Positions 15,035-36,469 of a stretch of 64,000 nt of DNA are shown piece by piece. This DNA is from an uncultured Clostridia bacterium (GTDB lineage: Bacteria; Bacillota; Limnochordia; Darwinibacteriales; DTU012), in the NCBI GenBank assembly GCA_900019385.1, contig FIZJ01000011.1, positions 4,006 through 68,005 of the forward strand, given 5' to 3'. Made by a program: the position numbers and the translations under genes. The first letter of the stretch is position 1, and every line of letters begins with the position of its first letter. The notes beneath the pieces are model-generated. The model was not told where the DNA came from and searched no databases. It saw nothing but the letters and a program-made list of their open reading frames with translations.

Positions 15035-15060
15035 GTAGATTTGAAGGAGCGGTCGGACCT

Positions 15061-15780: not shown

Positions 15781-15814
15781 CCCCGCCGGCTGGTTCAAAA
15801 AGAGGTGAGCTTTG

Positions 15815-16960: not shown

Positions 16961-17018
16961 GGCAAATATTCACCAATATGCTGACTGGTGGGAAGGAAAA
17001 AGCAATTTGTAATTGAAT

Positions 17019-17027
17019 TGGTATAAT
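17019..17027 (+). promoter_or_regulatory. Extended -10 element (TGgTATAAT) in the long AT-rich region upstream of the OmpM-like gene
   Basis: TGGTATAAT is read directly. No good -35 is present. Use of this element would give a ~300-nt leader. Confidence 0.3.
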
Positions 17028-17333
17028 AGGCCGCAATAGCCTTAAGCAGGGAACTACCCCCAAAAAAAATGATTATGGTAGAAGGAATATATTTAGGACG
17101 TGTAGAAATAGAGTTTAAGATGCTGTTATGTGTCGGTCTTTTTTTCTATTTTTCTGTCTCAAAATCGGAAAAAGGGGGGAACTGTGTTCTAATACATAGG
17201 TTGAACAGCACGATTTGCCGAGAAAACGGATATCAGTGGTAAAGGCGTTTCCGAGGAAACAAGGGGAAACTCGTGAACGGTTTTACTTCACTGACTATCA
17301 AGGTCATCAAAATTCAATGGGAGGTTATTGCTG

Positions 17334-19925
17334 ATGAATTCTAGAAGAGTATCACTAGTCCTAGTCGCAGTACTCGTCATGGCCATGTCCACATCAGTAC
17401 TGGCATCCAGCAACCCATTCTCAGATGTACCAGCGCATCACTGGGCGTACGACTCTGTAATGAAGCTTGCAGCGGTCGGCCTGGTCGAAGGGTATCCGGA
17501 TGGTACATTTGGCGGGACCAGGACAATGACCAGATATGAAGCAGCCATGGTGTTTGCCCGTGCCCTGGCCAGACTGGAAGCTCTTGTCGAAAGCCAGGTT
17601 CTTGAGAATACTGCCGGCGTGCAAGAGCGGATCACCGCCGATATTCTGGCTGAGCTGGACGCGACCGTTGACGAACTGGCCAAATTGATCGAAGACAAGC
17701 TGGGAATTGTGGTCGAAGAAACAGTCAAAGAAGAAGTGGCCATCCAACTGAAGGCAGCCGGCCCTGATCTTTTGCTTACCGCGGAAGCCCAGGCAGTACT
17801 TGCCCAGTTGGTCGGCGATTTGGTGAAGGAACAACTGGCCGAAGCGAAAGAACTGGCCACTGAAACCATCGTCGAGACCGGTGTGATTGAGAGAGTCGTA
17901 GTGGAAGACGTGGATGAGGAAGTAGTCAGAGCCATCGCTGAAGAAGTGCTCGCCAACAGCCTGTGGGCAATCAGTGAGCAAGTCGAGGCTAATGCCGACT
18001 TTATCGACATGACTATCGCCAAGATCAACGACCGGTTGGGCCGCCTGACCACAAAAGTAGACCAGATTGGCGCTACATATGTCAGTCAGGAACAGCTCGC
18101 CGATGAACTGGAAGCACTCGGCGACAAGATGTTGGATATCGAAGAAGAAATTGCCGCCAACGCTGATTATGTCGACATGGTCTTCTCCAAGACCAACGAT
18201 CGGCTTGGCCGTGTTACCAGGAATGTGGACCTGCTGGCTAGCGACGTTAATACAATCAACGGCTTGATCGCGGCGCTCCAAGGCGATGTCGAGGCGCTGC
18301 AGGCGTCATTGATTATCGAAACAGCAGATCTGTCCGACACTTTCAACAAGATCCGCAACGAGTTCTCTGCAGAACTCTCGCTGTTGGGTGTGCGCGTAGG
18401 CAAACTGGAGAGGCTCTATCAGGATCTCGACAGCCGCGTGGCAGCTGTTGAAGGCACAGTCGCAGAGCTGGATGCGAAAGTCGAAGGCGCCGCGGCTGAA
18501 ATCGCCGAGCTTGGTGCCAAAGTTGACGAAGCAACCAAGGTTCAGCTGAGCGGTTCCGTCAAGGTTGGCCTCGGCAAGACCAGAGTATGGACAATGCAGG
18601 GTGAAGATCAAGTCGACGTCACTCAGGTCACCGGCCTCCTTGGCACATATAAACCTGCAAATCTGGACACTGACACTTCATGGGAAAGCAGAATCGTTGC
18701 CAGAATCACTGAGGGCACCAAAGCCAGCTTGATTCTTGGCGGTAAAACCAATCTGCCTGATTCGCCTCAGGTATTTGACAAGTATGTGCTGGAAGTTGTC
18801 AGCGATACTCCGATCAACCTGCTTGCCGTGGGTACTGTGGGCAGCTATGTCGGGTCCAGGTTTGACGGCAATGCCCTGGCTATCAAGCCCGGCAAGGGTG
18901 CTGTCGCCGATGTGGGACTGGGCGGCTTGACGCTCTCCGCGCTGGCCGGTGTGAGAAACACAGACGGCATGATCGCTTTAGGCGCGAAGTACGTGGTGAG
19001 CCCAGCGTTCGGGTTTAAGCTGACAGGCGCCGCATATACCGACGCAGGCCTCAAGTACAATGATGAAAGTTCAGCAGCGGCCAGCATCTTTGGTAAAGTG
19101 CTCGGCATCAACTATGACTTCAAGGTAGCTTTGGAACGGGTCAAGGATGCGCTGGCAGACGAAGACGAAGAAGAGGAAAGCCTGCTTGACAACATGCTCT
19201 TTGATCTGAAGCTGGGTACAGAAATCGGCGCTCTGAGCGTTGACGCCCGCTACACCAAAGCCGGAGCCACCTTTGGCACCAGCAGCCTGACCACCAGAGG
19301 CTTCATTCACAGCGACGCCGCCACCAGACTGGGTGTCGACGCCGCGGCCAAGGTGTTTGGTGTCGATCTGAAAGCTGGCACTTACAATGAGAGCGATGAC
19401 GAAGGCGAGCAGCTGATCAACTCCGTGATGTTCAACGCAGGGTCTGAGTTCAAACTCTTCCTCCCGATCAAACTGTCCGGCGCTTATGGCTGGAAGTTGG
19501 GCGCGGGTGAAGAGAATGACATCCATACCCAAGTCAAGGTTGGCACTGGGTTCAAGCTGTTCGGCATCGATGTCGACGGAAGCTTCGCCTATGTCAAGAA
19601 CTGGATTAACGGTGATTGGCGCGATCCGAGCAAGTGGACAGGAAAGGACATCAACTTCGTGAATGTCGGCCTTGGCTATAACAAGGACGACCTGGGCGGA
19701 GCCAAGCTCGATCTGGGCTATGACTTCGAACTGGCCATTCCGACTGGAGATACCGCCGATCTGTACGGCAGCCAGATGACTCACCTTGTGAGCGCTGGTT
19801 ACACCTTCGGGCCTGGCTTGAAGTTGAATATGTCAGCCAAGAGAATTGCCATAGCCGACCTTGATGAGAACAATCCGAACACAAACGTAGACGTAGTCCA
19901 GGCTGGCTTGGAATTCTCCTTCTAG
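17334..19925 (+). CDS. OmpM-like outer-membrane tether: SLH domain + extended coiled coil + C-terminal porin-like beta-barrel
   Basis: Signal peptide. The SLH motif is FSDVPAHHWAYDSVMKLAAVGLVEGYPDGTFGG.RTMTRYEAA. A helical heptad region of ~320 aa includes the SLH-porin linker motif IRNEFSAELSLLGVRVGKLE. The Gly/Tyr-rich barrel ends in AGLEFSF. SD GGGAGG lies upstream of ATG 17334. Confidence 0.8.
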   Translation: MNSRRVSLVLVAVLVMAMSTSVLASSNPFSDVPAHHWAYDSVMKLAAVGLVEGYPDGTFGGTRTMTRYEAAMVFARALARLEALVESQVLENTAGVQERITADILAELDATVDELAKLIEDKLGIVVEETVKEEVAIQLKAAGPDLLLTAEAQAVLAQLVGDLVKEQLAEAKELATETIVETGVIERVVVEDVDEEVVRAIAEEVLANSLWAISEQVEANADFIDMTIAKINDRLGRLTTKVDQIGATYVSQEQLADELEALGDKMLDIEEEIAANADYVDMVFSKTNDRLGRVTRNVDLLASDVNTINGLIAALQGDVEALQASLIIETADLSDTFNKIRNEFSAELSLLGVRVGKLERLYQDLDSRVAAVEGTVAELDAKVEGAAAEIAELGAKVDEATKVQLSGSVKVGLGKTRVWTMQGEDQVDVTQVTGLLGTYKPANLDTDTSWESRIVARITEGTKASLILGGKTNLPDSPQVFDKYVLEVVSDTPINLLAVGTVGSYVGSRFDGNALAIKPGKGAVADVGLGGLTLSALAGVRNTDGMIALGAKYVVSPAFGFKLTGAAYTDAGLKYNDESSAAASIFGKVLGINYDFKVALERVKDALADEDEEEESLLDNMLFDLKLGTEIGALSVDARYTKAGATFGTSSLTTRGFIHSDAATRLGVDAAAKVFGVDLKAGTYNESDDEGEQLINSVMFNAGSEFKLFLPIKLSGAYGWKLGAGEENDIHTQVKVGTGFKLFGIDVDGSFAYVKNWINGDWRDPSKWTGKDINFVNVGLGYNKDDLGGAKLDLGYDFELAIPTGDTADLYGSQMTHLVSAGYTFGPGLKLNMSAKRIAIADLDENNPNTNVDVVQAGLEFSF
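17976..18239 (+). repeat. Internal coding duplication in the OmpM-like coiled coil
   Basis: EQVEANADFIDMTIAKINDRLGRLTTKVDQIG (17976-18071) against EEIAANADYVDMVFSKTNDRLGRVTRNVDLLA (18144-18239). Confidence 0.7.
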
Positions 19926-19945
19926 CCCTGACCAAATCGAAAAAA

Positions 19946-19975
19946 ATACCCACACTTCATGTGTGGGTATTTTTT
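19946..19975 (+). terminator. Strong rho-independent terminator after the OmpM-like gene
   Basis: Perfect 10-bp stem ATACCCACAC / GTGTGGGTAT with a TTCAT loop, flanked by an A-run and TTTTT. Confidence 0.85.
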
Positions 19976-20026
19976 ACGATCAAAAAAGCAAGCCGGTGAT
20001 ACGAATAGATAGAATAGGGATGAAAC

Positions 20027-20440
20027 ATGAATAGAAAAACAACAGGACAGTCGATCCTCGCGATCGACCCTGGAAGTGAAAAGTGCGGATTGGCCGTACT
20101 GGATGGAGATCAGATCCTTCTTCAGGAGATCGTGCCCCGTAGTGAGATTGTCAATCGGCTGCGCAACGTTCTTCCCGAAGCGGGGCCGATTGTGGTGGGT
20201 GATGGGACAGGAAGCAGAGCCTTTATCAAAGAACTAGCCGAATCCATGCCTGAAGTCAGGCACCGTGTGGTAACCGTGGACGAAAAACTGTCGAGTGTGG
20301 AAGCACGGGCCCTATACTGGCAGCACAATCCACCTCAGGGTTGGCGGCGGCTGCTGCCTGTGTCGCTGCAGACGCCGCCTGTACCCTTTGATGATTATGT
20401 CGCCGTCATTTTGGCGAAGCGGTATCAGGCTGGCAATTAA
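20027..20440 (+). CDS. RNase H-fold (YqgF/RuvC-like) nuclease domain protein
   Basis: ILAIDPGSEKCGLAVLD resembles the first acidic motif of RuvC/YqgF-type resolvase folds. The C-terminal DDYVAVILA resembles the last acidic motif. The assignment is weak. Confidence 0.4.
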   Translation: MNRKTTGQSILAIDPGSEKCGLAVLDGDQILLQEIVPRSEIVNRLRNVLPEAGPIVVGDGTGSRAFIKELAESMPEVRHRVVTVDEKLSSVEARALYWQHNPPQGWRRLLPVSLQTPPVPFDDYVAVILAKRYQAGN

Positions 20441-20571
20441 AGTCATTCTGAGAAAGATCTTCAATAAGGAAGGTTTTAGAACACTTGTGGCGAAATTTAG
20501 ATGTACCAAACAGAAAATGGACAGTCAGGCAAGCGGGACAAATATAGCGAGAAGATCGGAGGTGGGTTGTT

Positions 20572-21801
20572 GTGAACAGGCGCATGATTGTCTTTTTTTT
20601 CCCTTTGATCATTTTGCTGTTGGCAACAACCTGCGCTGCTCAAAAGGAAGAGACAGATCAGTGGATCTATGACGCTGTCGCTTACTTGAGCCAGTTGGAC
20701 TTCGGCGAGTTATACGCTGACGTCAATCCAGAGAACCGCTTTCAAGTGTCCCTGGCCATTGCCAATACCATTCAGAGGTTAGAGCAGAACAGCGGGCTGC
20801 CGGTTCAGCGATTCGGCGTAAGCCGTAGGATCAACCTCAAGGAACTGTTTGACAGCTACAACCAGCGTACGTTGGAGCACAGCCGGCTGCCGGAGCAGGC
20901 AATGACGTCTTTGGCTTTGCTGGCCGACGAATACCGCGATGAACTGAACATATTGGGATACTGGATCGAGGATCTTCCGAGCCTCGCAACCAACCAGACT
21001 GATTCAGCAAAAGCCTCGGCGATCCTGGAGAGCAATCTGTACGGGGCAGGCACATTTGCCCATTTGCTGAACGGAAGTCAAACCAGCGTTTTTAAGAGCG
21101 GATCAATGCAGGATCTGGACAAGAGCAGTGTATTGAGCAAGTATTTCGGGGAGGATGAGGACGAAGAGGAAAGGATCCTAATCAACAGCCTCATTCCGCT
21201 TTGGTCATCCGATTGGTTCATTGGGGCTGGGTTATCTTTGCCGGCACTGCCCAAAGGCGAGCAGGCAGCGGAAGAGCCTGGGTATGCCGGTATCATAGGT
21301 GAATACCTGATCAATCCAGGACTCGTCTTGGAAGGCCAATACCTGCATAACCTCTCACAGCCTTTGGACCCCGGCGTGCTGCAGTTCGGCGCCAGAGGGC
21401 GTTTGGGCAATGTAACGCTGCGGGGCTTGGTCCAGACAGGGGAAGATGAGAGCGAAGGAGCTAAGGCCAGCCTGGATATCACTTACACAACAGCGAATTC
21501 CATTTTAATTAGGGCAGGTTTTTACACGAACCTCAAACCCGTGTCTCAGCTGGGCTTTTCCGCCAGTACCGGCATTGATGTGGACATTCCCATCCCGCAT
21601 GGGCGGATTGCGCTGGGATTGGTCCAGCGATGGAACAATGACAGCTTGGATGAGGAAAACAGTGATGCAGCGGACAGGACCAGAGCCTCCATTGAGTTTA
21701 GCTACGACCTTACAAAAGATGTCTCGTTCAAACTGGATTACCGCCTCATTGACTTCAGTGATGTGAACAAGGCTTTGGCAGAGTTTTCCATTAGATTTTA
21801 A
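20572..21801 (+). CDS. Second OmpM-like beta-barrel protein with degenerate SLH-like N-terminus
   Basis: Signal peptide. QWIYDAVAYLSQLDFGELYADVNPENRFQVSLAIA looks like a decayed SLH motif. LADEYRDELNILGYWIEDL matches the linker motif of the 17334 gene (EF.AEL.LLGVRV..LE). The C-terminus is AEFSIRF. Confidence 0.5.
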   Translation: MNRRMIVFFFPLIILLLATTCAAQKEETDQWIYDAVAYLSQLDFGELYADVNPENRFQVSLAIANTIQRLEQNSGLPVQRFGVSRRINLKELFDSYNQRTLEHSRLPEQAMTSLALLADEYRDELNILGYWIEDLPSLATNQTDSAKASAILESNLYGAGTFAHLLNGSQTSVFKSGSMQDLDKSSVLSKYFGEDEDEEERILINSLIPLWSSDWFIGAGLSLPALPKGEQAAEEPGYAGIIGEYLINPGLVLEGQYLHNLSQPLDPGVLQFGARGRLGNVTLRGLVQTGEDESEGAKASLDITYTTANSILIRAGFYTNLKPVSQLGFSASTGIDVDIPIPHGRIALGLVQRWNNDSLDEENSDAADRTRASIEFSYDLTKDVSFKLDYRLIDFSDVNKALAEFSIRF

Positions 21802-21815
21802 CGAGGAGGAACAAT

Positions 21816-22739
21816 ATGAAACTGAGAGCTGCTGTTAGCTGCGCTTTAGCATTAATACTGCTGACAAGCCCTGTCACCGTTATCGCCCAGTCCACCACGT
21901 CACCTTTGGCAGTTTTGACCGAGTTGGAGCGGGCGCTTTTTGGCGAGGAACAGCCGGGGGCTCTGTTGGCACGGGTACAGGCGATTGAGATAGAGATCTT
22001 TGGGGCTGTCCAAACCGGCCCGGTAATGACCAGAATTGATAGGATCAACGAGTTTCTCTCAGGCAGCAGTTCAGGCCTTAAGCTACTGCTGAACCTGGTT
22101 GAGTGGGGATTCATGGAAAAACTGACCGGCAATGAGCCATTGGTAGCGAGATTGGAACGTATTGAGCTTGAGTTTATCGGCGAGCCGCAGCCAGGGCCTA
22201 TCACCGACCGGGTCAACCAGCTGATGATGTACATTTGGGGCACCACCAAGCTCGATTCAGCTCCGGTTAAAGTACCGGCGGCTACCTTGGTGGAAATCCA
22301 GATTCTGACTGGGGTTGATTCGGCAACAAGCCAAGTTGGTGAGTTAGTGAAATATCAGGTAGTCTCCGACGTGCTGGTGGACGGCCGGATAGTCATTCCC
22401 AGAGGCGCTCAGGGCGTCGGTAAGATTACAGAAGTGGTCAAAGCAGGGCATCTGGGCAAGAGCGGCAGAGTGGAGATCGATTTCGGCACGGTGCCGGCTT
22501 TCGACGGCAAGAACATCCGGCTGCGGGTAGCTGAGAAAGCCTTGGAGCGGAACAGCCGCTTAGACCTGGCGGCCGGTGCCAGTATAGCCGGTGTGCTGCT
22601 CTTGGGAGGGCCGATTGGTTTGGTAGGCGGCTACTTCGTTACTGGACAGGACGTAAAGATTGAGGCTGGATCGAAATTCTTTGTGGAAACCGAATTTGAG
22701 TATCAGACACTTGGGTTCCGCCTGGTTCCGGCGAACTAG
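21816..22739 (+). CDS. Secreted protein with duplicated LE..lfG helix motif and C-terminal glycine-zipper segment
   Basis: Strong SD GAGGAGG and a signal peptide. The repeat is LERALFGEEQPGALLARVQAIEIEIFG against LERIELEFIGEPQPGPITDRVNQLMMYIWG. The beta-rich block IVIPRGAQGVGKITEV..GR.GRVEIDF resembles TrbI/VirB10- or SlyB-type folds. The glycine zipper is AAGASIAGVLLLGGPIGLVGG. Confidence 0.5.
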   Translation: MKLRAAVSCALALILLTSPVTVIAQSTTSPLAVLTELERALFGEEQPGALLARVQAIEIEIFGAVQTGPVMTRIDRINEFLSGSSSGLKLLLNLVEWGFMEKLTGNEPLVARLERIELEFIGEPQPGPITDRVNQLMMYIWGTTKLDSAPVKVPAATLVEIQILTGVDSATSQVGELVKYQVVSDVLVDGRIVIPRGAQGVGKITEVVKAGHLGKSGRVEIDFGTVPAFDGKNIRLRVAEKALERNSRLDLAAGASIAGVLLLGGPIGLVGGYFVTGQDVKIEAGSKFFVETEFEYQTLGFRLVPAN

Positions 22740-22765
22740 TCCTGGGCACAAACCATTGTATAACG

Positions 22766-22795
22766 AAAAACCGCTGGTTTGGCGGTTTTTCTTTT
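22766..22795 (+). terminator. Rho-independent terminator
   Basis: AAAAACCGC..GCGGTTTTT hairpin followed by CTTTT. Confidence 0.6.
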
Positions 22796-22883
22796 AGCTC
22801 GGTGTTTGTGCAGGATAATCAAATTGTGAAGACGAAGAAATAGTTATGATCTTTGCAGAATCTACAGCCGGGGAGGTAGTTCA

Positions 22884-25800
22884 ATGAATGGTACTAGGAT
22901 AATCCTATTCACATTCATAATCTGTGCTGTTCTTGCCCAAACAGTATCAGCCGGCAATTACATACTGGATGTCGGTGATGTTCTGGAAATAACGGTCTGG
23001 GGGCACCCCGAACTGATGACCACTGTCCAAGTGCGCCCTGATGGATATATTACCTTTCCTTTGGTGGGAGATCAGCTGGCAGAAGGCAAGACTGCCAGCC
23101 AACTGGCGGAAGAGATACAGCGGCAGCTGTCTGTTTATGTTGTCGCTCCCAGTGTGACTGTGATCGTTGTCCAGTTCCGTACCATCCGGGTACAGGTCTT
23201 GGGTGAAGTCCGCAACCCCGGCTATTTTAGATTAAGCGCGGAAGACAGACTGCTGGACGCCATCGGCCTTGCCGGCGGGCCCACACCTGAGGCCAACCTG
23301 GCCGAAGTTGCCCTGACAAGGCTTGTCAGCGGAAATACAGAACTGTTAAAGTTGAATGTGGCCCGTTACATAGCGGAAGGCATTATTGAGCACAACCCGC
23401 TGCTGCGCGACGGTGATGTGATTTATCTGCCGCCTTCCGGCACCGCTTTGGTTCTGGGTGCTGTTTCCATGCCGGGCAGCTACAAACTGGTTCCAGACAT
23501 GGATATTCTGGACTTGTTGGCTGCAGGCGGCGGCCCGCTGCCTTCGGCCGACCTGTCCCAGGCAGTGCTGACCCGCAAGATAGGTGAATCATACACCGAC
23601 TTGATGCTCGACATTTATGCATTAATGCAGTCTGGTAAAGGCAAAGTGCGGGTGCACCCCGATGATGTGCTGTTCATCCCGGAGAAACAGACTGCGGTCC
23701 TTTTTGGCGAGGTTGCCGCTCCCGGCAGCTACGCCGTTGAACCTGACATGACATTGGCGGAACTGATCAGTGCCGCCGGTGGTTTGACAAAATCGGGAGA
23801 TCCTACCCAAATCCGGATTGTCCGGGAAACTGACGGTGACCGCCAATCCCTGACGGTGGATCTCAGCGACACGCTTACGGGCAAATCAGGGCTCAATCCA
23901 TTGGTGGTGGGCGGAGATATCATCTTTGTGCCAGAAATCATGAATACAGTGTTGGTCCTTGGTGAAGTGCGGCAGCCAGGCGCTTTCACCCTGAAAGAAC
24001 AGATGGGGATTCTTGATCTGATAGCCTTGGCAGGCAGTACTACGGCCAACGCAGCGTTGGATCGGGTCACTCTGACCCGGCAGATCGGCGACGAGGTGCT
24101 GGTTGAGGAAATCAATCTGGCGCAACTGCAGGGGACGGGGACCGGAAGGCATATTGAGCTGCTGCCGGGCGATGTGATCTTTGTCCCCGAAGGTGCGCCG
24201 CAGGCTTTGGTTTTGGGCAGAGTGGCCAAGCCGGGGAGCTACCGGGTGAGTGAAAGTATGCAGCTCTTAGAACTTCTGGCTGCGGCCGGAGGGCCGCTGG
24301 AAAGCGCCGGGGACGAAGTGTTGCTCACCCGCGGAGGTCAAACAATGGAAATCAATCTTGGCGCGTTAACCAGGCTGGGCATCGGTAATCAAAAAATTCT
24401 ACCTGGCGATGTGATCTATGTCATAGAAGGCAGGCATCAGGTGCTGGTTCTGGGAGAAGTCCGCAATCCAGGTTACCATAGATTGGAGTTCGGCGATCGG
24501 GTGCTTGACGGAATAGCCAAGGCCGGAGGGCTTTTGGAGACTGCGGCGGCGGACCTGGTGAGTGTCACCAGGCAAACCGAAGACACTGCTGAGGTGTTTT
24601 CCGTCAATTTGGAGCTTCTGGAGCAGAACCGGTTCCTCGACAGCAACTTCCTGCTGGAGGGCGGCGACGTGATTGTTGTTCCTGAGGCCAAACGGGATGT
24701 CTTGGTCCTTGGTGAAGTGGCTCGGCCCGGTGCCTACACGCTCCGTAAAGAACAGCGCCTGTTGGATGTCATTGCTCAATCAGGCGGCCTGACCAACACC
24801 GCCGCAGCCAACGCGGTGCAGATAACCAGGGTTGAGGCTGACGGCAGGCAGCATACAGCAGCCTACGACCTTGATGCCGTAATCAAAGGCGCCGGTGCAG
24901 ACAATCCCTTGATCAAACCTGGAGACATCGTTTATGTACCTGAACGGAAAACGTCAGTGCTTGTCTTCGGGGAGGTCGCCGCGCCCGGGTACTACACAGT
25001 CACGGATACGACAACGCTGCTTGATGTGATCGGCCGGGCCTCAGGCTTGACGGACCATGCTGACGCCAAGTCTGTCAGCTTCACACGTGTAGTGGACGGG
25101 CAGACTGTGATCGAGACGATTGACCTGGAACGGATAATGGCCACCGGCGAAGGCAACGTCCGCCTGTACGGCGGGGAAATGATTCTGGTTCCCGAACTGG
25201 ACTTGGAGATCTCCATCATCGGCGAGGTGAGATCTCCCGGCCGTTACCGGATTCGCCCCGGCGAGCGGCTGCTTGAAGCCTTGGCGAAAGCGGGAGGCTT
25301 GACGGACGATGCCGATCCTTGGCTGACGCTGACCCGTTGGACTGATGACGAACAAATGGTGCTGACCATAAATTACCGGGATCTGGTTCAATCCAATACG
25401 CCGGAGCTGAATCTGACGGTAGCCGGCGGGGATATCATCCATGTTCCCACTATGAACCGGCGGATTCTGGTGTTCGGCGAAGTGGCCCGGCCCGGCGCAT
25501 ACTTGGTGGACGAGTTCACAACGCTTTTGGATGTGATCGCTCTTGCCGGCGGCCCTACAGCCAGTGCCAAGCTGGATGAAGTGATGGTGGCGGCAGGAAC
25601 ATCTGCCGATTCAATCAAATACGTGGATCTTAACGCGGTGATCGACAAGGAGCAGCCAAATCCTGTGCTGCTGGGTGGGGAAGTGATCCATATTCCTGAG
25701 TCACGGCAGATCCTCGTCATGGGTGAGGTAGCCCGCCCAGGCGCGTTCAACCTTCCTGCCGGCGGCCGGATCCTCGATCTGCTGGCTCTGGCCGGCGGTT

Positions 25801-26321
25801 TGAGGAGCAGTTACGCCGATCAAGAGATTATTGTCACCCGGCAGGGACTGGACGGCGATCAGGTATGGATTACAGATTACCGTTCATTGATCAATAACCC
25901 TAATGAGCATAATCTGCTTCTGGCAGGCGGGGACGTTGTCTTTGTGCCGGAATACAGCCGCCAGATTGTGGTCTTGGGTGAGGTCAATAGGCCTGGTGCG
26001 TACCAAATCCATCAAGGAGCCCGGCTGCTTGACGCCATCGCCATGGCGGGCGGGCCGACAGACAGAGCTGAGCTTGGAGCGGTTGGGATCTACCGCGGCG
26101 GCGATATGCGGGATCCTGCAGAGTTTGCCGTGGGGCGGGATCGGATCCTCTTCCAGGGTGACGCGGAAGAGAACCCAGAGATTCGCGGTGGAGATGTGAT
26201 CTACGTTCCCGAGACCAGCAAACCGGATTGGAACAAAATCTTCGGTGTCCTAAGCGGTGTGAACACCTTCAGGCAGATACTTGACTGGGTCATCGACTTA
26301 TTCCCCGGAGGTGAGCGGTAG
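22884..26321 (+). CDS. Wza-like outer-membrane polysaccharide export (OPX) protein with 12 SLBB repeats
   Basis: Signal peptide. The Poly_export motif is Y.LDVGDVLEITVWGHPEL...VRPDGYITFPLVGD..AEGKT..QL. It is followed by 12 units, each carrying [VIL]LG.V..PG.[YF] ... GGDVI.VPE. Confidence 0.85.
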   Translation: MNGTRIILFTFIICAVLAQTVSAGNYILDVGDVLEITVWGHPELMTTVQVRPDGYITFPLVGDQLAEGKTASQLAEEIQRQLSVYVVAPSVTVIVVQFRTIRVQVLGEVRNPGYFRLSAEDRLLDAIGLAGGPTPEANLAEVALTRLVSGNTELLKLNVARYIAEGIIEHNPLLRDGDVIYLPPSGTALVLGAVSMPGSYKLVPDMDILDLLAAGGGPLPSADLSQAVLTRKIGESYTDLMLDIYALMQSGKGKVRVHPDDVLFIPEKQTAVLFGEVAAPGSYAVEPDMTLAELISAAGGLTKSGDPTQIRIVRETDGDRQSLTVDLSDTLTGKSGLNPLVVGGDIIFVPEIMNTVLVLGEVRQPGAFTLKEQMGILDLIALAGSTTANAALDRVTLTRQIGDEVLVEEINLAQLQGTGTGRHIELLPGDVIFVPEGAPQALVLGRVAKPGSYRVSESMQLLELLAAAGGPLESAGDEVLLTRGGQTMEINLGALTRLGIGNQKILPGDVIYVIEGRHQVLVLGEVRNPGYHRLEFGDRVLDGIAKAGGLLETAAADLVSVTRQTEDTAEVFSVNLELLEQNRFLDSNFLLEGGDVIVVPEAKRDVLVLGEVARPGAYTLRKEQRLLDVIAQSGGLTNTAAANAVQITRVEADGRQHTAAYDLDAVIKGAGADNPLIKPGDIVYVPERKTSVLVFGEVAAPGYYTVTDTTTLLDVIGRASGLTDHADAKSVSFTRVVDGQTVIETIDLERIMATGEGNVRLYGGEMILVPELDLEISIIGEVRSPGRYRIRPGERLLEALAKAGGLTDDADPWLTLTRWTDDEQMVLTINYRDLVQSNTPELNLTVAGGDIIHVPTMNRRILVFGEVARPGAYLVDEFTTLLDVIALAGGPTASAKLDEVMVAAGTSADSIKYVDLNAVIDKEQPNPVLLGGEVIHIPESRQILVMGEVARPGAFNLPAGGRILDLLALAGGLRSSYADQEIIVTRQGLDGDQVWITDYRSLINNPNEHNLLLAGGDVVFVPEYSRQIVVLGEVNRPGAYQIHQGARLLDAIAMAGGPTDRAELGAVGIYRGGDMRDPAEFAVGRDRILFQGDAEENPEIRGGDVIYVPETSKPDWNKIFGVLSGVNTFRQILDWVIDLFPGGER
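23181..26214 (+). repeat. Tandem array of 12 SLBB-like coding repeats (~85-90 codons each)
   Basis: The twelve core motifs are VLGEVRNPGYF, VLGAVSMPGSY, LFGEVAAPGSY, VLGEVRQPGAF, VLGRVAKPGSY, VLGEVRNPGYH, VLGEVARPGAY, VFGEVAAPGYY, IIGEVRSPGRY, VFGEVARPGAY, VMGEVARPGAF and VLGEVNRPGAY. Confidence 0.8.
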
Positions 26322-27766
26322 TGAACATGGAAGAAATGGACTTGCTTGAACTGTGGCAGATCTTGATGAAGCGCAAGCTTCATATCCTCCTGTGCCTGGT
26401 TCTGGCAGTCGCGGCAGCCTTGGCCGCAAGCATCTACACTGAGCCGGTGTATCAAGCGACGACAACCATGATGTTCAAGAATGATCAGTCAACGGCTCTG
26501 GCCGCTCTCAATCCATTGAGCTCACTGACGGGATCGTCTGTCAATGTGATGCTGCAAAACTATATTTACATGCTTAAAAGCCGGACGATACTGACCAAGG
26601 TCATGACCGAACTGGGGTGGGAGGAAATAACCAGCGAAGAGCTTCGGCAAATAGAGGGAGCCCTAACCGTGCAGCAGGTCACCGGTACCGAGATTCTGGA
26701 GATAAGTTTCGAGTCGAACGACAGGGAACTCGCCACCAATTTTGTCAACACCCTCAGCCGGGAGTTTGTCGACTGGATAAGGGATGAAAACAGGTCGGAT
26801 TTGCGAACTACCGGCGAGTACCTTCTGGAACAGATAGAGATTGTGGCCGCCCAACTGAAGGATGCGGAAGAACAGCTGACACAGTTTCGGGAAACAGAAC
26901 GGATGATCCAGCCCATACAGGATTCGTCCATGATGGTTAAACACTATATGGAGTGGGACAACCAGCTGGCTTTGACCAAGATCGCCAAAATCGAAGTTGA
27001 ACAGCGCCTGCGGCAGATTCAAGAGAAGCTGGCCGCCCAGGACGAGGTCATCATATCAGCGACTGCGATCCAGATCAACCCGCTGGTTCAGGCATACCAG
27101 CAGCGGTTGGCGGATCTGGAGATATCCTTGTCCGGCGCGCTTCAGCTGTATACAGACCGCCATCCAGAAGTCTTGAGCCTGCAGGCGGAAATTGAGGAGA
27201 CCCGTGCCAAGCTGGCGGGAGAAGTGGAGCGGATTACAGCCACCGAAACCATGTCCATCAATCCGATTCACAGCGAATTGTTCAGGCAGCTGACAGCCGC
27301 CCAGGTGGAGTTGGTGGCCTTGAACGCGAGGGAACAGGCGATCAATCAGCTCCGGGACGAGTTGGGCAAGGAGTATGCCCACATTCCGCAGAAAGAATTG
27401 GAACTGATGCGTTTGATGCGCATGGTTTCCCTCCATGAGGATATCTATGTGATGCTCATGACCCGCTATGAAGAGATCCGCATCAATGAGCAGATGCATT
27501 CCGGTAACCTGCAGATTGTCGATGAGGCCTCGATTCCGGAAAAGCCGATCAAACCCCGGACTAAGCTCAATATCGCTATTGGCGGTGTCCTCGGGCTGTT
27601 TCTCGGTGTCGGTTTGGCGTTTCTTTTGGAGTTTCTGGACAACACGATCAATACCAAGGAGGATGTGGAAAAGGTCCTGGCACTGCCAGTCATCGGACAG
27701 ATTCCAGAGATCAACAATCATCGTTCCTTTGGGAATGGACGGTTCAAACACAATGTAAGGATGTGA
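26321..27766 (+). CDS. Wzz/GumC-type polysaccharide co-polymerase (PCP) with long coiled-coil periplasmic domain
   Basis: N-terminus has LLELWQILMKRK plus a TM and the Y.A...M motif of the Wzz domain. A helical periplasmic region of ~350 aa follows. The second TM is IAIGGVLGLFLGVGLAFLLEFLD. GTG 26321 overlaps the wza stop (ATG 26327 is an alternative). Confidence 0.8.
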   Translation: MNMEEMDLLELWQILMKRKLHILLCLVLAVAAALAASIYTEPVYQATTTMMFKNDQSTALAALNPLSSLTGSSVNVMLQNYIYMLKSRTILTKVMTELGWEEITSEELRQIEGALTVQQVTGTEILEISFESNDRELATNFVNTLSREFVDWIRDENRSDLRTTGEYLLEQIEIVAAQLKDAEEQLTQFRETERMIQPIQDSSMMVKHYMEWDNQLALTKIAKIEVEQRLRQIQEKLAAQDEVIISATAIQINPLVQAYQQRLADLEISLSGALQLYTDRHPEVLSLQAEIEETRAKLAGEVERITATETMSINPIHSELFRQLTAAQVELVALNAREQAINQLRDELGKEYAHIPQKELELMRLMRMVSLHEDIYVMLMTRYEEIRINEQMHSGNLQIVDEASIPEKPIKPRTKLNIAIGGVLGLFLGVGLAFLLEFLDNTINTKEDVEKVLALPVIGQIPEINNHRSFGNGRFKHNVRM

Positions 27767-27772
27767 TCATTG

Positions 27773-28471
27773 ATGGCGAGAGACTACACAGGACAGCTAA
27801 TAGTACACAATGATCCCAAGGCCGTCGACTCAGAAGCTTTCCGCATTTTGCGGACCAATCTGCAGTTCGCGTCGTTGAATGAAGACCTGAAGGTCATTTC
27901 CTTCACCAGCACCGGACCTGGCGAAGGAAAATCGGTGGTATGCGCGAATCTCGCTGTTTCTTACGCCCAGGCAGGCGCCAGAGTCATCCTGATTGACTGT
28001 GACTTGCGCAAACCTGCCATGCACAGCTTTTTCGGATTGAGGAACAACGTGGGCCTGACCAGTGTCCTGACAGGGCAAAAGGATATCGAATCAGCACTGC
28101 AGGATACACAGTGTGAGAACTTGCGCCTGCTGGCTTCTGGGCCGATTCCGCCCAATCCCGCCGAGATGCTGCATTCCAGCGTCATGCAGAAGACACTCGC
28201 TGAAATCAAAGGCCATGCAGATAAGATCCTGATCGATGCGCCACCGGTGCTGCCGGTGGCCGATGCCATGATTTTGGCTAACTATGTGGATGGTGTCATC
28301 CTCGTTGTTGGGGTCAAACAAGCGCCCAAGGAGATGGTGCTTCGGGCCAAAGAACAGCTGACAAGCACAAACGCCCGAATTCTTGGGGTGGTTTTGAACA
28401 AAGTCAAATTCGACCGGGGAAGCGTGCACTACTATTACAGCTATTACAGTGCCAATGACAACCATGGATAA
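27773..28471 (+). CDS. BY-kinase (CpsD/CapB-type protein-tyrosine kinase), separate polypeptide
   Basis: EAFR.LRTN..F, Walker A TSTGPGEGKS, A' ILIDCDLRKP and Walker B ILIDAPPVLPVADA. The C-terminal Tyr cluster is HYYYSYYS. Confidence 0.85.
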   Translation: MARDYTGQLIVHNDPKAVDSEAFRILRTNLQFASLNEDLKVISFTSTGPGEGKSVVCANLAVSYAQAGARVILIDCDLRKPAMHSFFGLRNNVGLTSVLTGQKDIESALQDTQCENLRLLASGPIPPNPAEMLHSSVMQKTLAEIKGHADKILIDAPPVLPVADAMILANYVDGVILVVGVKQAPKEMVLRAKEQLTSTNARILGVVLNKVKFDRGSVHYYYSYYSANDNHG

Positions 28472-29264
28472 GCTGAACGGCAAACTGATCGATCTACATG
28501 CGCACATTTTGCCCGGCCTCGATGACGGTGCCAGTGATAGAGTCGAAGCGTTGGCCATGGCTCGGCAGGCTGTGGAGCATCAGATTCAGGTTGTGGCAGC
28601 CACCCCCCATTTCATTGATCTGACTTGGGATCATGTTAAGAATGAAGCGGCAAAGCTTGGAGAACTGCTGGCGGCTCATCATGTTGATCTGACAGTCGTG
28701 CCCGGCGCCGAGTTGTTTATCGACCTCGACTTGACCGGCTTGGCAAAGGAAGAAATACCTACTTACAACGATGCCGGCAAATACTGCTTGATCGAGTTTC
28801 CCATGATGGAGCTTCCCCCCTATGTTGATCAAGTGCTCTTTGCCCTTCAAGTCAAAGGTATTACTCCGATTATTGCCCATCCTGAACGTTATCGCTATGT
28901 TATCGATGATCCCAATCTGGCAGCCAGTTGGATTGAGACAGGATGTTTGATTCAGCTCAATACCAACAGCATATTGGGAGGCTTTGGGCTTCAGGTGCAG
29001 CGGACAGCTGAGATTATGCTGCGGCGTCAGATGGTGCACGTAATTGCCAGCGATGCCCATTCCACCGGCCGCCGCGGTTTTCATCTGGATCGCGCCGCCG
29101 AGGCTGTGGGCCGGCTGATGGGAGTGGAAATGGTGGAACAGCTGTTATGCGCGAATCCAGCCCGGATCATCGCCGGAGAGGCTGTCGATGTTCCCGAAGT
29201 GGTTCAGCACCGCCCGCAGCGGCGTTTTTGGGACTTGATAAGGCGAAGGAGGAGTTTGGAGTGA
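28464..29264 (+). CDS. PHP-family protein-tyrosine phosphatase (CpsB/CapC/YwqE type)
   Basis: IDLHAHILPGLDDGA ... ATPH ... IAHPERY ... ASDAH are the CpsB metal-binding blocks. ATG 28464 overlaps the kinase stop (ATGGATAA). Confidence 0.85.
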   Translation: MDKLNGKLIDLHAHILPGLDDGASDRVEALAMARQAVEHQIQVVAATPHFIDLTWDHVKNEAAKLGELLAAHHVDLTVVPGAELFIDLDLTGLAKEEIPTYNDAGKYCLIEFPMMELPPYVDQVLFALQVKGITPIIAHPERYRYVIDDPNLAASWIETGCLIQLNTNSILGGFGLQVQRTAEIMLRRQMVHVIASDAHSTGRRGFHLDRAAEAVGRLMGVEMVEQLLCANPARIIAGEAVDVPEVVQHRPQRRFWDLIRRRRSLE

Positions 29265-30154
29265 CTTTGGTGCAAGTGCCTGTCGATCAGATCGAGGTTG
29301 CTTCTAGCTATCTGCGGTCCTCTTGGGATCAGCAGAAACTCGCCGATTTGGCCAATTCCATCGCCGAAGTGGGCCTGCTTCATCCAATCCTCGTTGTGGA
29401 GCAGGAGACGGGTTTCCGCCTGATCGCCGGGTACCGCCGCCTGACGGCCTGCAAAACCCTAGGCCTTGACACCATTGCCGCTTTTGTCTTAAGCAAAGAT
29501 GCGTCGACGAGGCAGATCCAAATAGTTGAAAACGTTCATCGGGAGGATTTGAACCCGATTGATCGGGCCGCCGCCGTGCAGCTGTTTATCCAAGAAAACC
29601 AGTTTTCGGTATCGGAAGCGGCCAAGCGCCTGGGAATACCCCGGACAACGATCAACGACTGGCTGGCGGTTCTGGATTTGCCGGACCGCTACCAGAACGC
29701 CGTCCTCAACAACTACTACGGCGGGAGTTCGCCGCTGACGCTGTCCCATGTCGGTTTGGCCAGGCGCTTCGCCAACAAGATGGGCAGCAAAAAGATGTTT
29801 GAGGTGGCTTTGGATGCTGTTTTGTACTACAGCCTCAGCCGGAACGAGACACGGAAGGTTCTGAAACTGGTGGCGGACGCCAAAAACCTCAGCATCGACC
29901 AGGCTGTGCGCAAAGTGCGCCTGATCCCTCAAGAACGGGACCGCGAAGCCAAGGCTCCGGCTTGGACGGTGGAGCAGTTGATGTCATCCTTGAGCAAATC
30001 CGGAGATTATTTGGTCAAGGCCGATTTTCAGCACCTGCACGCTTTGAGCGAAAAACAGAAACAGGAAGTGATCAGAAAAGCCAAAGCGCTGCAGCAGCTT
30101 CTTAACGACATGATTGAGAAAATAAGCCAGCCGCCGGTCTCCAAATCCGGCTAG
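29261..30154 (+). CDS. ParB/Srx-fold N-terminal domain protein with HTH
   Basis: GTG 29261 overlaps the phosphatase stop (GTGA) and has SD AAGGAGGAG upstream. The ParB boxes are LA.SI...GLLHPILV......LIAGYRRL.A.K.LG and ENVHREDLNPIDRA. The HTH is SVSEAAKRLGIPRTTINDWL. Confidence 0.7.
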   Translation: MTLVQVPVDQIEVASSYLRSSWDQQKLADLANSIAEVGLLHPILVVEQETGFRLIAGYRRLTACKTLGLDTIAAFVLSKDASTRQIQIVENVHREDLNPIDRAAAVQLFIQENQFSVSEAAKRLGIPRTTINDWLAVLDLPDRYQNAVLNNYYGGSSPLTLSHVGLARRFANKMGSKKMFEVALDAVLYYSLSRNETRKVLKLVADAKNLSIDQAVRKVRLIPQERDREAKAPAWTVEQLMSSLSKSGDYLVKADFQHLHALSEKQKQEVIRKAKALQQLLNDMIEKISQPPVSKSG

Positions 30155-30236: not shown

Positions 30237-30395
30237 ATGACGATCTGCAGCCATGCCAGAGCCAAGGTGGATCCTGACGGCGCTGTAGAATACTACTGCG
30301 ACAAGCTGACTTGGCGAATGGGCCTTGATGGGTTGGAACACTGCAAGCAGTGTGCTTATTACACCACGGAGAAAAAACAAGCCGGTCGACATTGA
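30237..30395 (+). CDS. Small 52-aa Cys-containing protein (below the ORF-track length cutoff)
   Basis: Translated by hand: MTICSHARAKVDPDGAVEYYCDKLTWRMGLDGLEHCKQCAYYTTEKKQAGRH. SD GGAGGTG lies 11 nt upstream and TATAAT lies at 30169-30174. Cys residues are at 4, 21, 36 and 39 (C..C pair). The stop lies inside the hairpin GCCGGTC-N6-GACCGGC. Confidence 0.3.
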   Translation: MTICSHARAKVDPDGAVEYYCDKLTWRMGLDGLEHCKQCAYYTTEKKQAGRH

Positions 30396-30422: not shown

Positions 30423-30857
30423 TTGATTGTCAAACGCTGGATAATAGTATTGCTTTACGCTGTTTTTATTTTTGTCTTTACTCAAAGCACAGCTTCCGGC
30501 GCAAGCGCCATGATCAGCTGGCTGAAAGCGTGGTTTCCCATGCTCCCAAATGAGCAGGCCGTGGAGGCTGTCGTGTACTTGCGCAAGCTGATCCACATCG
30601 GCGGGTATTTTCTCGCTTTTGTGCTGATTCACTCGGCTGTGCGGGTCACGCCGCGGTTAAACCGCTGTGCGTATACTGTTTCGGCAGCCCTGGCCTTAAC
30701 TTTGGCTGCCTGCGATGAGTGGTATCAGACCAGACTTTCCCACCGCAGCGGCAGTGTCTTGGACATCGCCCTGGATCTGGCGGGAATCGGCCTGGCGGCC
30801 GCCGCAGTGAGAGTTTTCCACATTGCGAGGAAAAGCGAAAAAGCTTCCAGCAGCTAG
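30423..30857 (+). CDS. VanZ-like family membrane protein
   Basis: Four hydrophobic segments. RKLIHIGGYF and CDEWYQ....R.GSV.D...D..G follow the VanZ pattern (K..H...Y......DE..Q.F...R.....D). It is preferred over the overlapping minus ORF 30207-30632. Confidence 0.65.
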   Translation: MIVKRWIIVLLYAVFIFVFTQSTASGASAMISWLKAWFPMLPNEQAVEAVVYLRKLIHIGGYFLAFVLIHSAVRVTPRLNRCAYTVSAALALTLAACDEWYQTRLSHRSGSVLDIALDLAGIGLAAAAVRVFHIARKSEKASSS

Positions 30858-31048
30858 TGCTCTGGAAGCTTTTTTCCCAGTAAAACGCTGCGTTCCGGCA
30901 GCGTCAGCGCCACATTTTCCAATTCCCTGATATATTCCTGCTGTTTCCCCAGTTCTCTCCGGAGCATGGCGTTCTCTTTCCTCAATGCCGCGATCTCGTT
31001 CTCCAGGCGGGCAATCTCGCGCTCAGTCAGCGATGACATCCGGCTCAC
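30854..31048 (-). CDS. Small coiled-coil protein, hypothetical
   Basis: 64 aa, heptad-rich (EIARLENEIAALRKENAMLRREL). It is the last ORF downstream of iscS-thiI on the minus strand. There is no family assignment. Confidence 0.35.
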   Translation of the reverse strand: MSRMSSLTEREIARLENEIAALRKENAMLRRELGKQQEYIRELENVALTLPERSVLLGKKLPEH

Positions 31049-34944: not shown

Positions 34945-36366
34945 TTACCGCCCTCCAATGTTAACTTTGCACTTAATGGCCGGGCCACCCATACCAACAG
35001 GCATGGGCTGCTTTTTGCCGCACATTCCCGCGACAGACCATTTCATGTCGTTCGAGACCATGGTGACTGTCTGCAGCACATCGAAGGCTACGCCGGAGAT
35101 AGTTGTGTCGAAGATGGCGCGGCCCAGTTTGCCGTTCTTGATTTCATACCCGAGGACGACTCCGAACATGAACTCGCTGGTTGTGTCCGCCTGCCCGTTG
35201 TTGGGGCGGATCAGGTAGTACCCGTCGTCGATGGAGGCGATCATGTCCTCGAGGCTGTCTTTGCCCGGCAGGATCGCTGTGTTGCGCATCCGGATCAGCG
35301 GTTCGTCGGAAAAAGACCAGGCCCGGGCGTTGCCGGTTGGCTTGACACCGTAGTGGAGCGCGCTTTCTTTGCTGTGCAGATAGGTCTTGAGAATACCCTG
35401 ATCGATGATCACCGCGTCTTCCGCCTCGGTCCCCTCGTCATCCACAAAGATGGGCATGGGGCAGAGCTCGCCGAGGGCGTGGTGGGCGAAATCAACCAGG
35501 CTGATCAAGGGGCTGGCTACTTGTTTGTCCATGAATCTGGCCGCCACCGACCCCCCCAGGACCAAATCCGCCTCAGTGGTGTGGCCGATGGCTTCGTGGG
35601 CCAGGATCCCGCCGAGATCGGCGTCGAGGATGCAGTCTTTGACCCCTGGTTCGGCGTATACTCCCTCCACCTTGTGGCGCAGCTGCTCATAGAGGAGGTC
35701 TATATCCTTATAAAGATCGGCAGGATCGTTGAAGACATCCTCGAACTGGCCCCGGCTGCCGAAGACATCGAACAGCTCGACGGGATTGCCGTCCTTGTCC
35801 ATGGTCATGGTGATCGAGATCAGCGCCCGGGGGTTGAAGGAGTATGCGTGGGAACCGTCGGAAGTAAGCAGCTGCTTTTCCATGTCGAGGCAGTTCAGGT
35901 TCACATAGCGGCTGGCCAGATCAGGGTATTTCTCGGCGATATACTGATCAACCTGCTTGGTGAATTCGATCAGCTGCTTCTGTGTAAGCCGAGGCTTATT
36001 GGTGGAAAAGTCATGCTCCGCTCTCAGCGGTTTCGCCGGCAAATCCGGCTTGCCTTTGTTCTGCTTGCCGTCGAGGAAAGCGGCGTTGGCGGAAGCGGCT
36101 TTGATTACCTGTCTGACACTTTCATCGGTAAAATCCGGACTAGAGGCAAAACCCCAGGAACCATGCTGGTAAACCCGGGCGCAAATGCCGCTGGTGGTGG
36201 ACTGGACATTCCGGACGTTGCTGCCTTTGAGAAACCCAATCGATACGACGTGGTTTTCCTGCGCCCGCAGCTCTGTATAACCGGCTAGCAAAGGTGTGTA
36301 TTTCTCCAAATCAATCCGTTGCAAACCTATCCCTCCCTGTTTCGCGTTACTATTACTTTTAGCCAT
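34945..36366 (-). CDS. tldD: TldD-type metalloprotease
   Basis: HEAIGHTTEADL is the HExxxH-like TldD motif, and the C-terminus is GMCGK..Q..PVG.GGP. The start is set at ATG 36366 (MAKSNSNAKQ..). The 699-aa track ORF runs on through the aroA promoter and antisense to aroA. Confidence 0.8.
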   Translation of the reverse strand: MAKSNSNAKQGGIGLQRIDLEKYTPLLAGYTELRAQENHVVSIGFLKGSNVRNVQSTTSGICARVYQHGSWGFASSPDFTDESVRQVIKAASANAAFLDGKQNKGKPDLPAKPLRAEHDFSTNKPRLTQKQLIEFTKQVDQYIAEKYPDLASRYVNLNCLDMEKQLLTSDGSHAYSFNPRALISITMTMDKDGNPVELFDVFGSRGQFEDVFNDPADLYKDIDLLYEQLRHKVEGVYAEPGVKDCILDADLGGILAHEAIGHTTEADLVLGGSVAARFMDKQVASPLISLVDFAHHALGELCPMPIFVDDEGTEAEDAVIIDQGILKTYLHSKESALHYGVKPTGNARAWSFSDEPLIRMRNTAILPGKDSLEDMIASIDDGYYLIRPNNGQADTTSEFMFGVVLGYEIKNGKLGRAIFDTTISGVAFDVLQTVTMVSNDMKWSVAGMCGKKQPMPVGMGGPAIKCKVNIGGR

Positions 36367-36410
36367 CGATCCGCAAGATTCCTCTCGTCCCGTATCGCCA
36401 ACCAAAAGAG

Positions 36411-36440
36411 TTGTCACAACTGCCATATTTAGGATATAAT
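36411..36440 (+). promoter_or_regulatory. Candidate sigma-70 promoter for aroA-aroB
   Basis: TTGTCA, 18 nt spacer, TATAAT, 30 nt upstream of ATG 36470. Confidence 0.5.
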
Positions 36441-36469
36441 CAATGCAAAGCGAGGGCGGAGGAAAGAAA

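Follow-up and report, generated by a model that had tools for sequence, protein, structure and literature searches.

The window examined here is the whole 64,000-nucleotide (64-kb) stretch of contig FIZJ01000011.1 from an uncultured Clostridia bacterium of the Limnochordia, and its central element is ParBL, a ParB-like protein encoded directly behind the exporter, co-polymerase, tyrosine kinase and phosphatase genes of a polysaccharide export cassette. ParBL belongs to a small subfamily derived from ParB/Noc and confined to diderm Firmicutes and, judged by its sequence, retains the CTP-pocket residues together with the ParB DNA-binding domain. This combination suggests a DNA-binding switch wired to envelope sugar export. 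The explanation favoured here, at a little under even chances, is that ParBL acts as a CTP-gated DNA-binding regulator of envelope or polysaccharide genes, possibly fed by the kinase. Each component is of a kind already known. The novelty lies in the subfamily, which has its own architecture and is restricted to Limnochordia and Halanaerobiales, and in the fact that it sits in a conserved envelope context and is part of an operon.

The cassette, ParBL and the genes that follow are arranged as listed here, behind a terminator that closes the upstream gene p307:

22765-22791, + strand: strong intrinsic terminator after p307 (12-pair stem plus T-run; kept in relatives)

22884-26321, + strand: Wza-type outer-membrane polysaccharide exporter (OPX), with Poly_export (PF02563) plus 12 SLBB stretches

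26321-27766, + strand: polysaccharide co-polymerase (PCP), with Pfam Wzz plus GNVR and no fused kinase

27770/27773-28471, + strand: BY-kinase, a CapB/CpsD-type tyrosine autokinase (TIGR01007, 219 bits against a cut-off of 108)

28464-29264, + strand: CpsB-type PHP phosphotyrosine phosphatase (CpsB_CapC PF19567, E 1e-53, 182 bits against a cut-off of 27)

29261-30154, + strand: the ParB-like protein ParBL, 297 aa (Pfam ParB_N plus HTH_ParB)

30237-30395, + strand: open reading frame (ORF) of 52 aa with four cysteines (cys52), directly after ParBL, with no family match

30423-30857, + strand: VanZ-family membrane protein (NF037970, 47 bits against a cut-off of 20)

The PCP, kinase, phosphatase and Wza are ordinary members of their families. 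Wza scores 459 bits with TIGR03028 (cut-off 263) and is likewise above the cut-off of TIGR03027. The PCP has a long periplasmic region and a short cytoplasmic C-terminal tail. Two hydrophobic stretches (about residues 20-40 and 425-447, read from the sequence) give it two transmembrane segments and, with Wzz plus GNVR and a separate kinase gene adjoining, the protein has the split layout of the PCP-2b-like kind; its best NCBIfam match, the XrtA chain-length determinant, stays below its cut-off. Among solved structures the kinase matches Staphylococcus aureus CapB best (E 7e-51), and its tail, GSVHYYYSYYS, carries the C-terminal tyrosine cluster. MinD appears as a distant relative (3e-11), in keeping with the membership of BY-kinases in the MinD/ParA group that an earlier note on this DNA had stated. 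The phosphatase scores below the cut-off of the Cps4B equivalog model. The order given in that note (Wzz-like PCP, BY-kinase with the tail HYYYSYYS, PHP phosphatase, ParB-fold protein) was confirmed by the ORF list, by Pfam and NCBIfam scans and by the structure search.

The genes meet at overlapping or near-overlapping junctions, which can be read directly from the DNA. Wza and PCP share TAGTG at 26319-26323. The PCP stop TGA (27764-27766) is followed, after a 3-nt gap, by the kinase start at TTG 27770 or ATG 27773. At the kinase/phosphatase junction (ATGGATAA) the PHP start ATG 28464 overlaps the kinase stop TAA, and at GTGA (29261-29264) the start of ParBL lies over the stop of the phosphatase, with a ribosome-binding site (AAGGAGGAG) seven bases 5' of the ParBL GTG. 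This start, GTG 29261 rather than ATG 29147, is chosen because the homologues all begin with MxLVQVP. Such junctions point to translational coupling; they leave undemonstrated the stoichiometric co-expression that they had been taken to imply.

The terminator at 22765-22791 parts p307 from wza, and the export operon therefore starts downstream of it. No strong + strand terminator was found between wza and vanZ, the last + strand gene ahead of the convergent thiI-iscS pair. Thus wza, PCP, kinase, PHP and ParBL, and probably also cys52 and vanZ, form one transcription unit. The statement that no sugar-synthesis gene follows, only a tiny cysteine protein and then vanZ, also held: the scan of the main ORFs across the whole window turned up no glycosyltransferase, flippase, polymerase or priming transferase.

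ParBL matches ParB_N (PF02195) with 56 bits against a cut-off of 26. In an alignment of 27 family members, G57, R59, R60, E90, N91, R94 and E95 are invariant, as are R19, Q87 and P99, which gives the motifs G57-x-R59-R60 and E90-N91-x-x-R94-E95-x-x-x-P99; in ParBL the pocket box reads ENLQRE(D)L. The arginine patch, which had been reported as kept along with the helix-turn-helix (HTH), is therefore not degenerate. The HTH itself is an invariant G-I/V-P-R-T-T-x-x-x-W-L (GIPRTTxxDWL), a further motif N-x-x-G-G-x-S-x-x-T-x-S-H is shared, and the HTH and the DNA-binding helices that follow are the most conserved part of the family. A family profile run against solved structures matches Myxococcus xanthus ParB-CDP at 1e-38 and Noc at 6e-36 (residues 3-188), with ParB and Noc in the range 1e-38 to 1e-36, and also finds Thermus thermophilus Spo0J, Bacillus subtilis ParB and KorB. 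The AlphaFold2 (AF2) model of ParBL (pLDDT 84) has ParB, Noc and KorB as its top Foldseek matches, and the ParB-like fold is borne out in both kinds of comparison.

ParBL also departs from ParB and Noc. The protein begins directly at ParB_N: in near-full-length ParB/Noc chains the counterpart of its residue 3 lies at residues 23-37 (28-30 in the Noc chains 7nfu and 7ol9), and the solved ParB and Noc chains carry 22-36 extra N-terminal residues. In ParB this N-terminal extension holds the ParA-stimulating peptide; in Noc, an amphipathic membrane-targeting helix. The C-terminal dimerisation domain of ParB (PF23552), present in most canonical hits (E 1e-25 or weaker), is absent in the ParBL subfamily, where the C-terminus is helical and subfamily-specific. 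Because the recognition helix (RTTxxDWL) differs from that of M. xanthus ParB (RSTVANALRLL), a new DNA specificity is probable. The window's ParBL has Tyr at both positions equivalent to M. xanthus Q52 and E93, which are mutated in the PDB entries 7bnr and 7o0n; other family members carry Q and/or E there. Since both hydrolysis residues are Tyr, CTP hydrolysis is probably slow in the window's clade and might not occur at all.

These differences bear on whether ParBL is an ordinary chromosome-partition ParB/Spo0J or a Noc paralogue that lies here by accident. Its N-terminal 150-190 residues do align well with both proteins. The missing N-terminal extension and PF23552, the Noc model score (TIGR04285, 108.8 bits against a cut-off of 315) and the different recognition helix speak against it, as do the surroundings: the window holds no parS, the scanned ORFs of the window include neither soj nor rsmG nor dnaA, the position in an outer-membrane (OM) gene cluster is kept across two classes, and one metagenome-assembled genome (MAG) has three copies. 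That ParBL is simply Spo0J or Noc, an outcome that would have undone the earlier note, is thus largely refuted and very improbable. A use of the ParB/Srx fold away from DNA, as an enzyme acting on an envelope precursor (an SbnI-like nucleotide-dependent kinase or sulfiredoxin-like chemistry), is just as far from likely. The fold is versatile, SbnI and sulfiredoxin are among the weak structural matches, and a survey of the fold takes a similar general view (PMC12704722); against this, the HTH and following helices are the best conserved part, and the whole N-domain plus DNA-binding architecture is retained. A role in anti-phage defence was also considered and rejected: no PADLOC system was found, and the only match was to a ParB_N-like stretch of a methyltransferase model.

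The subfamily is rare. A homologue search returned 38 full-length relatives (E 1e-185 to 1e-45); the next homologues are canonical ParBs at E 1e-25 or weaker, matched in the N-terminal part only. The C-terminal half (residues 148-297) finds matches in just 23 clusters out of 1.84 billion representative proteins, nearly all sharing one architecture of about 300 aa, and members come only from Limnochordia-type and Halanaerobiales genomes.

Linkage was surveyed by placing 12 window proteins on 36 related loci with tblastn, together with called genes and a rough neighbour-joining tree; counts are of distinct loci, with the window and L091 included. Of 29 distinct loci, 13 have the cassette next to ParBL. 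These come from every one of the three subfamily clades and show three gene orders, with the cassette either ahead of ParBL or behind it, or with a ParBL-kinase-PHP-Wzz run at a different site. The following arrangements were found:

Type A: RuvX-like, OmpM-like, p307, Wza, PCP, kinase, PHP, ParBL, (Cys52), VanZ; the window, L010, L011, L002, L014, L015, and the only partly seen L091, L036, L032 and L025

Type B: RuvX-like, x, p307, ParBL, Wza, PCP, kinase, PHP; L009, L033 and L034 (three Limnochordales)

Type C: RuvX-like, OmpM-like, p307, ParBL, (Cys52), VanZ, with no cassette; L004 and L013

Type D: RuvX-like, OmpM-like, p307, ParBL and nothing else; nine loci

Type E: ParBL, kinase, PHP, Wzz, OEP between rpsR and ychF, away from the OM cluster; L007

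Halanaerobiales: Wzz, terminator, ParBL in L031 and L028 (with amino-sugar genes in L031); ParBL near thiI-iscS in L027 and L029

Eleven loci keep ParBL with no cassette nearby. The remaining five comprise L026, whose flank is unseen, L035, whose contig is too short, and the Halanaerobiales loci listed above, with some flank visible and no kinase. In the tree, type C is nested among type A, which suggests secondary loss of the four cassette genes. The linkage of ParBL and cassette is far beyond chance and probably ancient, though not obligatory. The constant feature is ParBL at the tail of the OM cluster beside p307; RuvX-like, OmpM-like, p307 and ParBL recur in almost all loci, and the first three are steadier neighbours of ParBL than the kinase is. 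The conservation of a ParB-like gene beside BY-kinase modules in relatives, on which the earlier note had staked its claim, is thus observed.

Several loci have features of their own. The Halobacteroidaceae MAG T1Sed10_148 holds three ParBL-subfamily loci (L028, L031, L035), which may be paralogues or strain variants; two of them follow a Wzz-like gene and have a common upstream motif, CTGCAATTnTCTGCAGGAAAA. In L007 (8704-10001) a run of N, an assembly gap or mask, lies just upstream of ParBL, and the cassette is found between rpsF-ssb-rpsR and ychF. In Bacillus this neighbourhood is origin-proximal, where soj-spo0J lies. The cysteines of cys52 are C4, C21, C36 and C39; tblastn finds the ORF at 40-86% identity in type A and C loci, and it could be a small zinc-binding partner.

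The kinase neighbourhood raises the possibility of a dedicated ParA-like/ParB-like pair, the idea of the earlier note, in which ParBL would be a direct partner of the BY-kinase and would couple or position the export machine relative to the chromosome or cell cycle, with little or no transcriptional role; it would amount to a hard-wired version of the pneumococcal CpsD-ParB crosstalk. The kinase belongs to the MinD/ParA-group P-loop proteins, ParBL is translationally coupled to the kinase-phosphatase pair, and the linkage occurs in three orders and three clades, including L007 with its ParBL-kinase-PHP-Wzz run away from the OM cluster. Set against this, ParBL lacks the N-terminal region where the ParA-stimulating peptide of ParB is sited, and 11 loci have ParBL with no kinase nearby. 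Neither does the kinase look specialised: it is 45-53% identical to the kinases of other ParBL loci and 50-53% identical to CpsD/CapB of Desulforamulus, Thermosediminibacter and Pelosinus, and since it is no closer to the former than to these generic CpsD/CapB proteins of monoderm Firmicutes and Pelosinus it does not belong to a specialised partner clade. No residue of ParBL co-varies with linkage. There is a precedent in Streptococcus pneumoniae, where the ParA-like CpsD was seen to bind ParB in vitro and the mobility of ParB changes with the phosphorylation state of CpsD (PMC4574921; RocS preprint, bioRxiv 10.1101/359943). That precedent also settles part of the earlier note, which had proposed an undescribed coupling of kinase and ParB: the linkage does recur (13 of 29 loci), but a link between a BY-kinase and ParB had already been described with pneumococcal CpsD (PMC4574921). 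On balance a dedicated pair is unlikely, and a classical ParA/ParB partnership for kinase and ParBL is doubtful.

The opposite possibility is that ParBL has nothing to do with the kinase, acts on the OM cluster only as a regulator or insulator, and stands beside the cassette since both occupy the variable end of the cluster. The most constant neighbours are indeed RuvX-like, OmpM-like and p307, not the kinase. Several type C, type D and Halanaerobiales loci have a terminator-like hairpin plus T-run upstream of ParBL, with which an own promoter is possible, and all genes from position 29 to 30857 of the window share one orientation, as one long cluster. Yet among members of the window's clade ParBL starts either on top of the PHP stop or no more than about 12 nt from it, L007 has cassette and ParBL together outside the OM cluster, and in a second class, in Halanaerobiales, a Wzz gene stands ahead of ParBL. 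A role unrelated to the kinase is accordingly judged improbable, slightly more so than a dedicated pair.

The favoured reading, a CTP-gated regulator, would work as follows. ParBL would be a DNA-binding switch of the KorB/VirB/BisD/Noc kind, on the cytoplasmic, DNA side, regulating envelope and polysaccharide genes, including biosynthetic genes unlinked to the cassette. In this way unlinked genes of biosynthesis or of the OM would be kept in step with the export machinery. In loci that have the cassette, ParBL would be co-translated with kinase and phosphatase, and their state might serve as its input, either through binding of the ParA-like kinase or through tyrosine phosphorylation.

A number of results weigh against this reading. 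CTP binding, DNA binding and regulation by ParBL are all predicted only. ParBL without a cassette in 11 loci implies that the kinase is not needed for its basic function. No tyrosine specific to kinase-linked ParBLs was found, and the variable residue of GxRR does not track kinase linkage; the Tyr of GYRR was rejected as a kinase target, for GYRR also occurs in kinase-free loci, and kinase-linked loci have GERR, GLRR or GVRR. The search for a binding site was equally negative. Canonical parS (TGTTNCACGTGNAACA, up to 3 mismatches) gave one 3-mismatch match in the window against 2.2 expected by chance, and no operator or parS-like site came to light. No inverted repeats are shared by the intergenic regions of 8 loci, no near-perfect palindromes of 14-18 bp are common to 28 loci, and no palindrome recurs within the window. 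The top k-mer, CTGCAGGA (TGCAGGA), occurs with one mismatch in 11 of 17 upstream regions, and 1 of 30 shuffles also reaches 11; as a motif upstream of the ParBL-bearing unit, not above shuffled controls, it is a weak lead. Phylogenetic footprinting of four intergenic regions showed terminators and some conserved promoter-like blocks, and no operator.

Transcript data are neutral. The metatranscriptome run X11 covers the region as flat-depth contigs that run on through convergent genes; these contigs show that the region is represented and neither prove nor disprove the operon; operon structure is beyond their resolution, and carried-over DNA may contribute to them. One X11 contig lacks 6 nt near the wza 3' end (window 26291) and has six single-base differences within 18942-26241; these differences from the window look like strain variants.

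A broader and more speculative proposal, which we regard as unlikely, is that a dedicated ParB-family CTP switch was recruited in diderm Firmicutes to serve a ParA-like BY-kinase on the DNA side, either as its partner or as its substrate, giving a complete PCP-kinase-phosphatase-ParBL signalling cassette. If so, the cassette would inform the chromosome of the state of polysaccharide export or OM assembly, by way of gene expression or of nucleoid positioning. It would also be a hard-wired and ancient form of the CpsD-ParB crosstalk otherwise known only from pneumococcus.

The wider setting of ParBL is a gene cluster for OM biogenesis, and it belongs to a diderm Firmicute of the Limnochordia/MBA03 type. 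Upstream of the cassette, on the same strand, lie genes for BamA, Skp, a YjbH-like protein, LptF/G, LptD-like and LptA/C-like proteins, two ABC ATPases (LptB-like), FabZ, LpxB and DUF3084, followed by an 865-aa SLH (OmpM-like) protein and a divergent RuvX-like gene. The main features are:

1510-19925, + strand: complete OM biogenesis cluster (BamA, Skp, Lpt genes, FabZ, LpxB, DUF3084, SLH/OmpM-like)

17384-19892, + strand: SLH/OmpM-like gene (X11 contig depth 744, against 45-88 for its neighbours)

19940-19975, + strand: intrinsic terminator after the SLH/OmpM-like gene (hairpin plus T-run in 5 loci, with changes in the loop)

20027-20440, + strand: divergent YqgF/RuvX-like gene (Pfam RuvX, 31 bits), upstream of ParBL in nearly all related loci

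20572-21801, + strand: p409, secreted and OmpM-like, with a degenerate SLH motif, a coiled coil and a probable beta-barrel (no Pfam match; kept in synteny in related loci)

21816-22739, + strand: p307, secreted, of no family, with internal repeats and a weak TrbI-like match

With its complete OM cluster the organism is most likely diderm. The PCP layout, called a hybrid of Gram-negative and Gram-positive styles in the earlier note, is normal in such bacteria and is to be expected because the organism is a diderm Firmicute: the window carries BamA, Lpt and LpxB, and Pelosinus has the same layout. NCBIfam also has separate models for the split PCP and kinase families known from Gram-negatives (EpsF/EpsG, PEP-CTERM), and these are the best NCBIfam neighbours here.

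The SLH/OmpM-like gene is probably very highly expressed. The terminator behind it marks the start of the RuvX-like/p409/p307 unit; X11 contigs break there and depth falls from 744 to 88. Orthologues of p409 show weak SLH or faint Porin_4 matches, and the p409-p307 pair is conserved. p307 adjoins ParBL or stands near it in locus types A to D, as its most constant neighbour. The RuvX-like (nuclease-fold) gene is kept in the OM cluster between OmpM-like genes in Limnochordia and Halanaerobiales (L004, L006, L009, L031 and others), a second nucleic-acid-type protein, beside ParBL, in an envelope cluster.

Elsewhere in the window, a Tad/Flp pilus cluster (50285-60346) with a secretin (53015-55534) and a response-regulator/ParA-like fusion of the CpaE/TadZ type (55527-56717) is another diderm feature. 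A DegS/DegU-type two-component pair (47164-49070), about 17 kb downstream of the ParBL region, is a conceivable candidate for regulating envelope or exopolymer genes; no link to the ParBL cassette was found. A coiled-coil ORF of 61-64 aa (30854-31048, - strand) adjoins thiI, recurs at 45-89% identity in several related loci and has no annotation. The mechanical 699-aa ORF at 34945-37044 (- strand) is over-extended; relatives call a 459-aa TldD beside a 431-aa PmbA.

The nearest genomes are uncultured "Bacillota/Limnochordia" MAGs of anaerobic digesters, including Ca. Wallacebacter cryptica (MBA03/DTU010 group), and the same sequence occurs in many digester metagenomes and one metatranscriptome. 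The relatives belong to the MBA03/DTU010 'Ca. Darwinibacteriales' group, and the paper describing that order never mentions the outer membrane or lipopolysaccharide (PMC12663870). An abundant anaerobic-digester lineage related to MBA03/DTU010 is here shown to carry a full OM biogenesis cluster.

In full-text literature searches, no paper was found that combines a BY-kinase with a ParB-like protein, or that places ParB in the OM cluster of diderm Firmicutes. A survey of the ParB-CTPase fold published in 2025 (PMC12704722) is silent in its main text on polysaccharide, capsule, tyrosine kinase and outer membrane. ParB-type CTP switches are turning up beyond chromosome segregation, and a chromosomal subfamily tied to the envelope and restricted to Firmicutes with two membranes would be a further setting for them. 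For work on BY-kinases, a kinase and a ParB-like protein encoded in one operon give independent comparative support for talk between BY-kinase and ParB, so far seen in pneumococcus only. All four proteins are small and either soluble as they are or open to truncation into soluble versions, so the link between kinase and ParBL lends itself to direct in vitro work.

Among known systems, CpsD-ParB-RocS of S. pneumoniae is alike in that a ParA-like kinase of the CapB/CpsD type, from an export module with a CpsB-type phosphatase and a separate PCP, is tied to a ParB-family protein. There, ParB is the canonical chromosomal protein, encoded elsewhere, and the host is monoderm; in the window the ParB paralogue is truncated and dedicated, its gene forms part of the operon itself, the organism is a diderm Firmicute, and the link is one of gene neighbourhood. 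KorB (RK2), VirB (Shigella) and BisD (ICEclc), described as ParB-type CTP-dependent transcription regulators, share a ParB N-domain with CTP pocket plus HTH and serve gene regulation rather than segregation. They are encoded on plasmids or an integrative and conjugative element and work through known operators and with partners that include KorA and TrbA, whereas ParBL is chromosomal, is restricted to two classes and has its own C-terminal domain. Noc is likewise a chromosomal ParB paralogue of Firmicutes with an envelope-related function, and aligns with ParBL residues 3-188; ParBL differs in having no N-terminal extension, in falling far below the cut-off of the Noc model and in lying outside the rsmG-noc-soj-spo0J context.

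Standard cassettes (S. aureus CapABC, pneumococcal CpsBCD, Pelosinus L090) contain the same four export-control protein families. In L090, the ordinary exopolysaccharide locus of the Negativicute Pelosinus, VanZ stands beside CpsB, and Wza, a separate kinase and a long Wzz/GNVR protein are present too; unlike the window, the locus has glycosyltransferases, a priming transferase and rml genes, and it lacks ParB. The window's cassette, with no linked glycosyltransferase, flippase or polymerase, is set apart from the standard ones by its place at the end of an OM cluster and by the addition of ParBL and the small four-cysteine gene.

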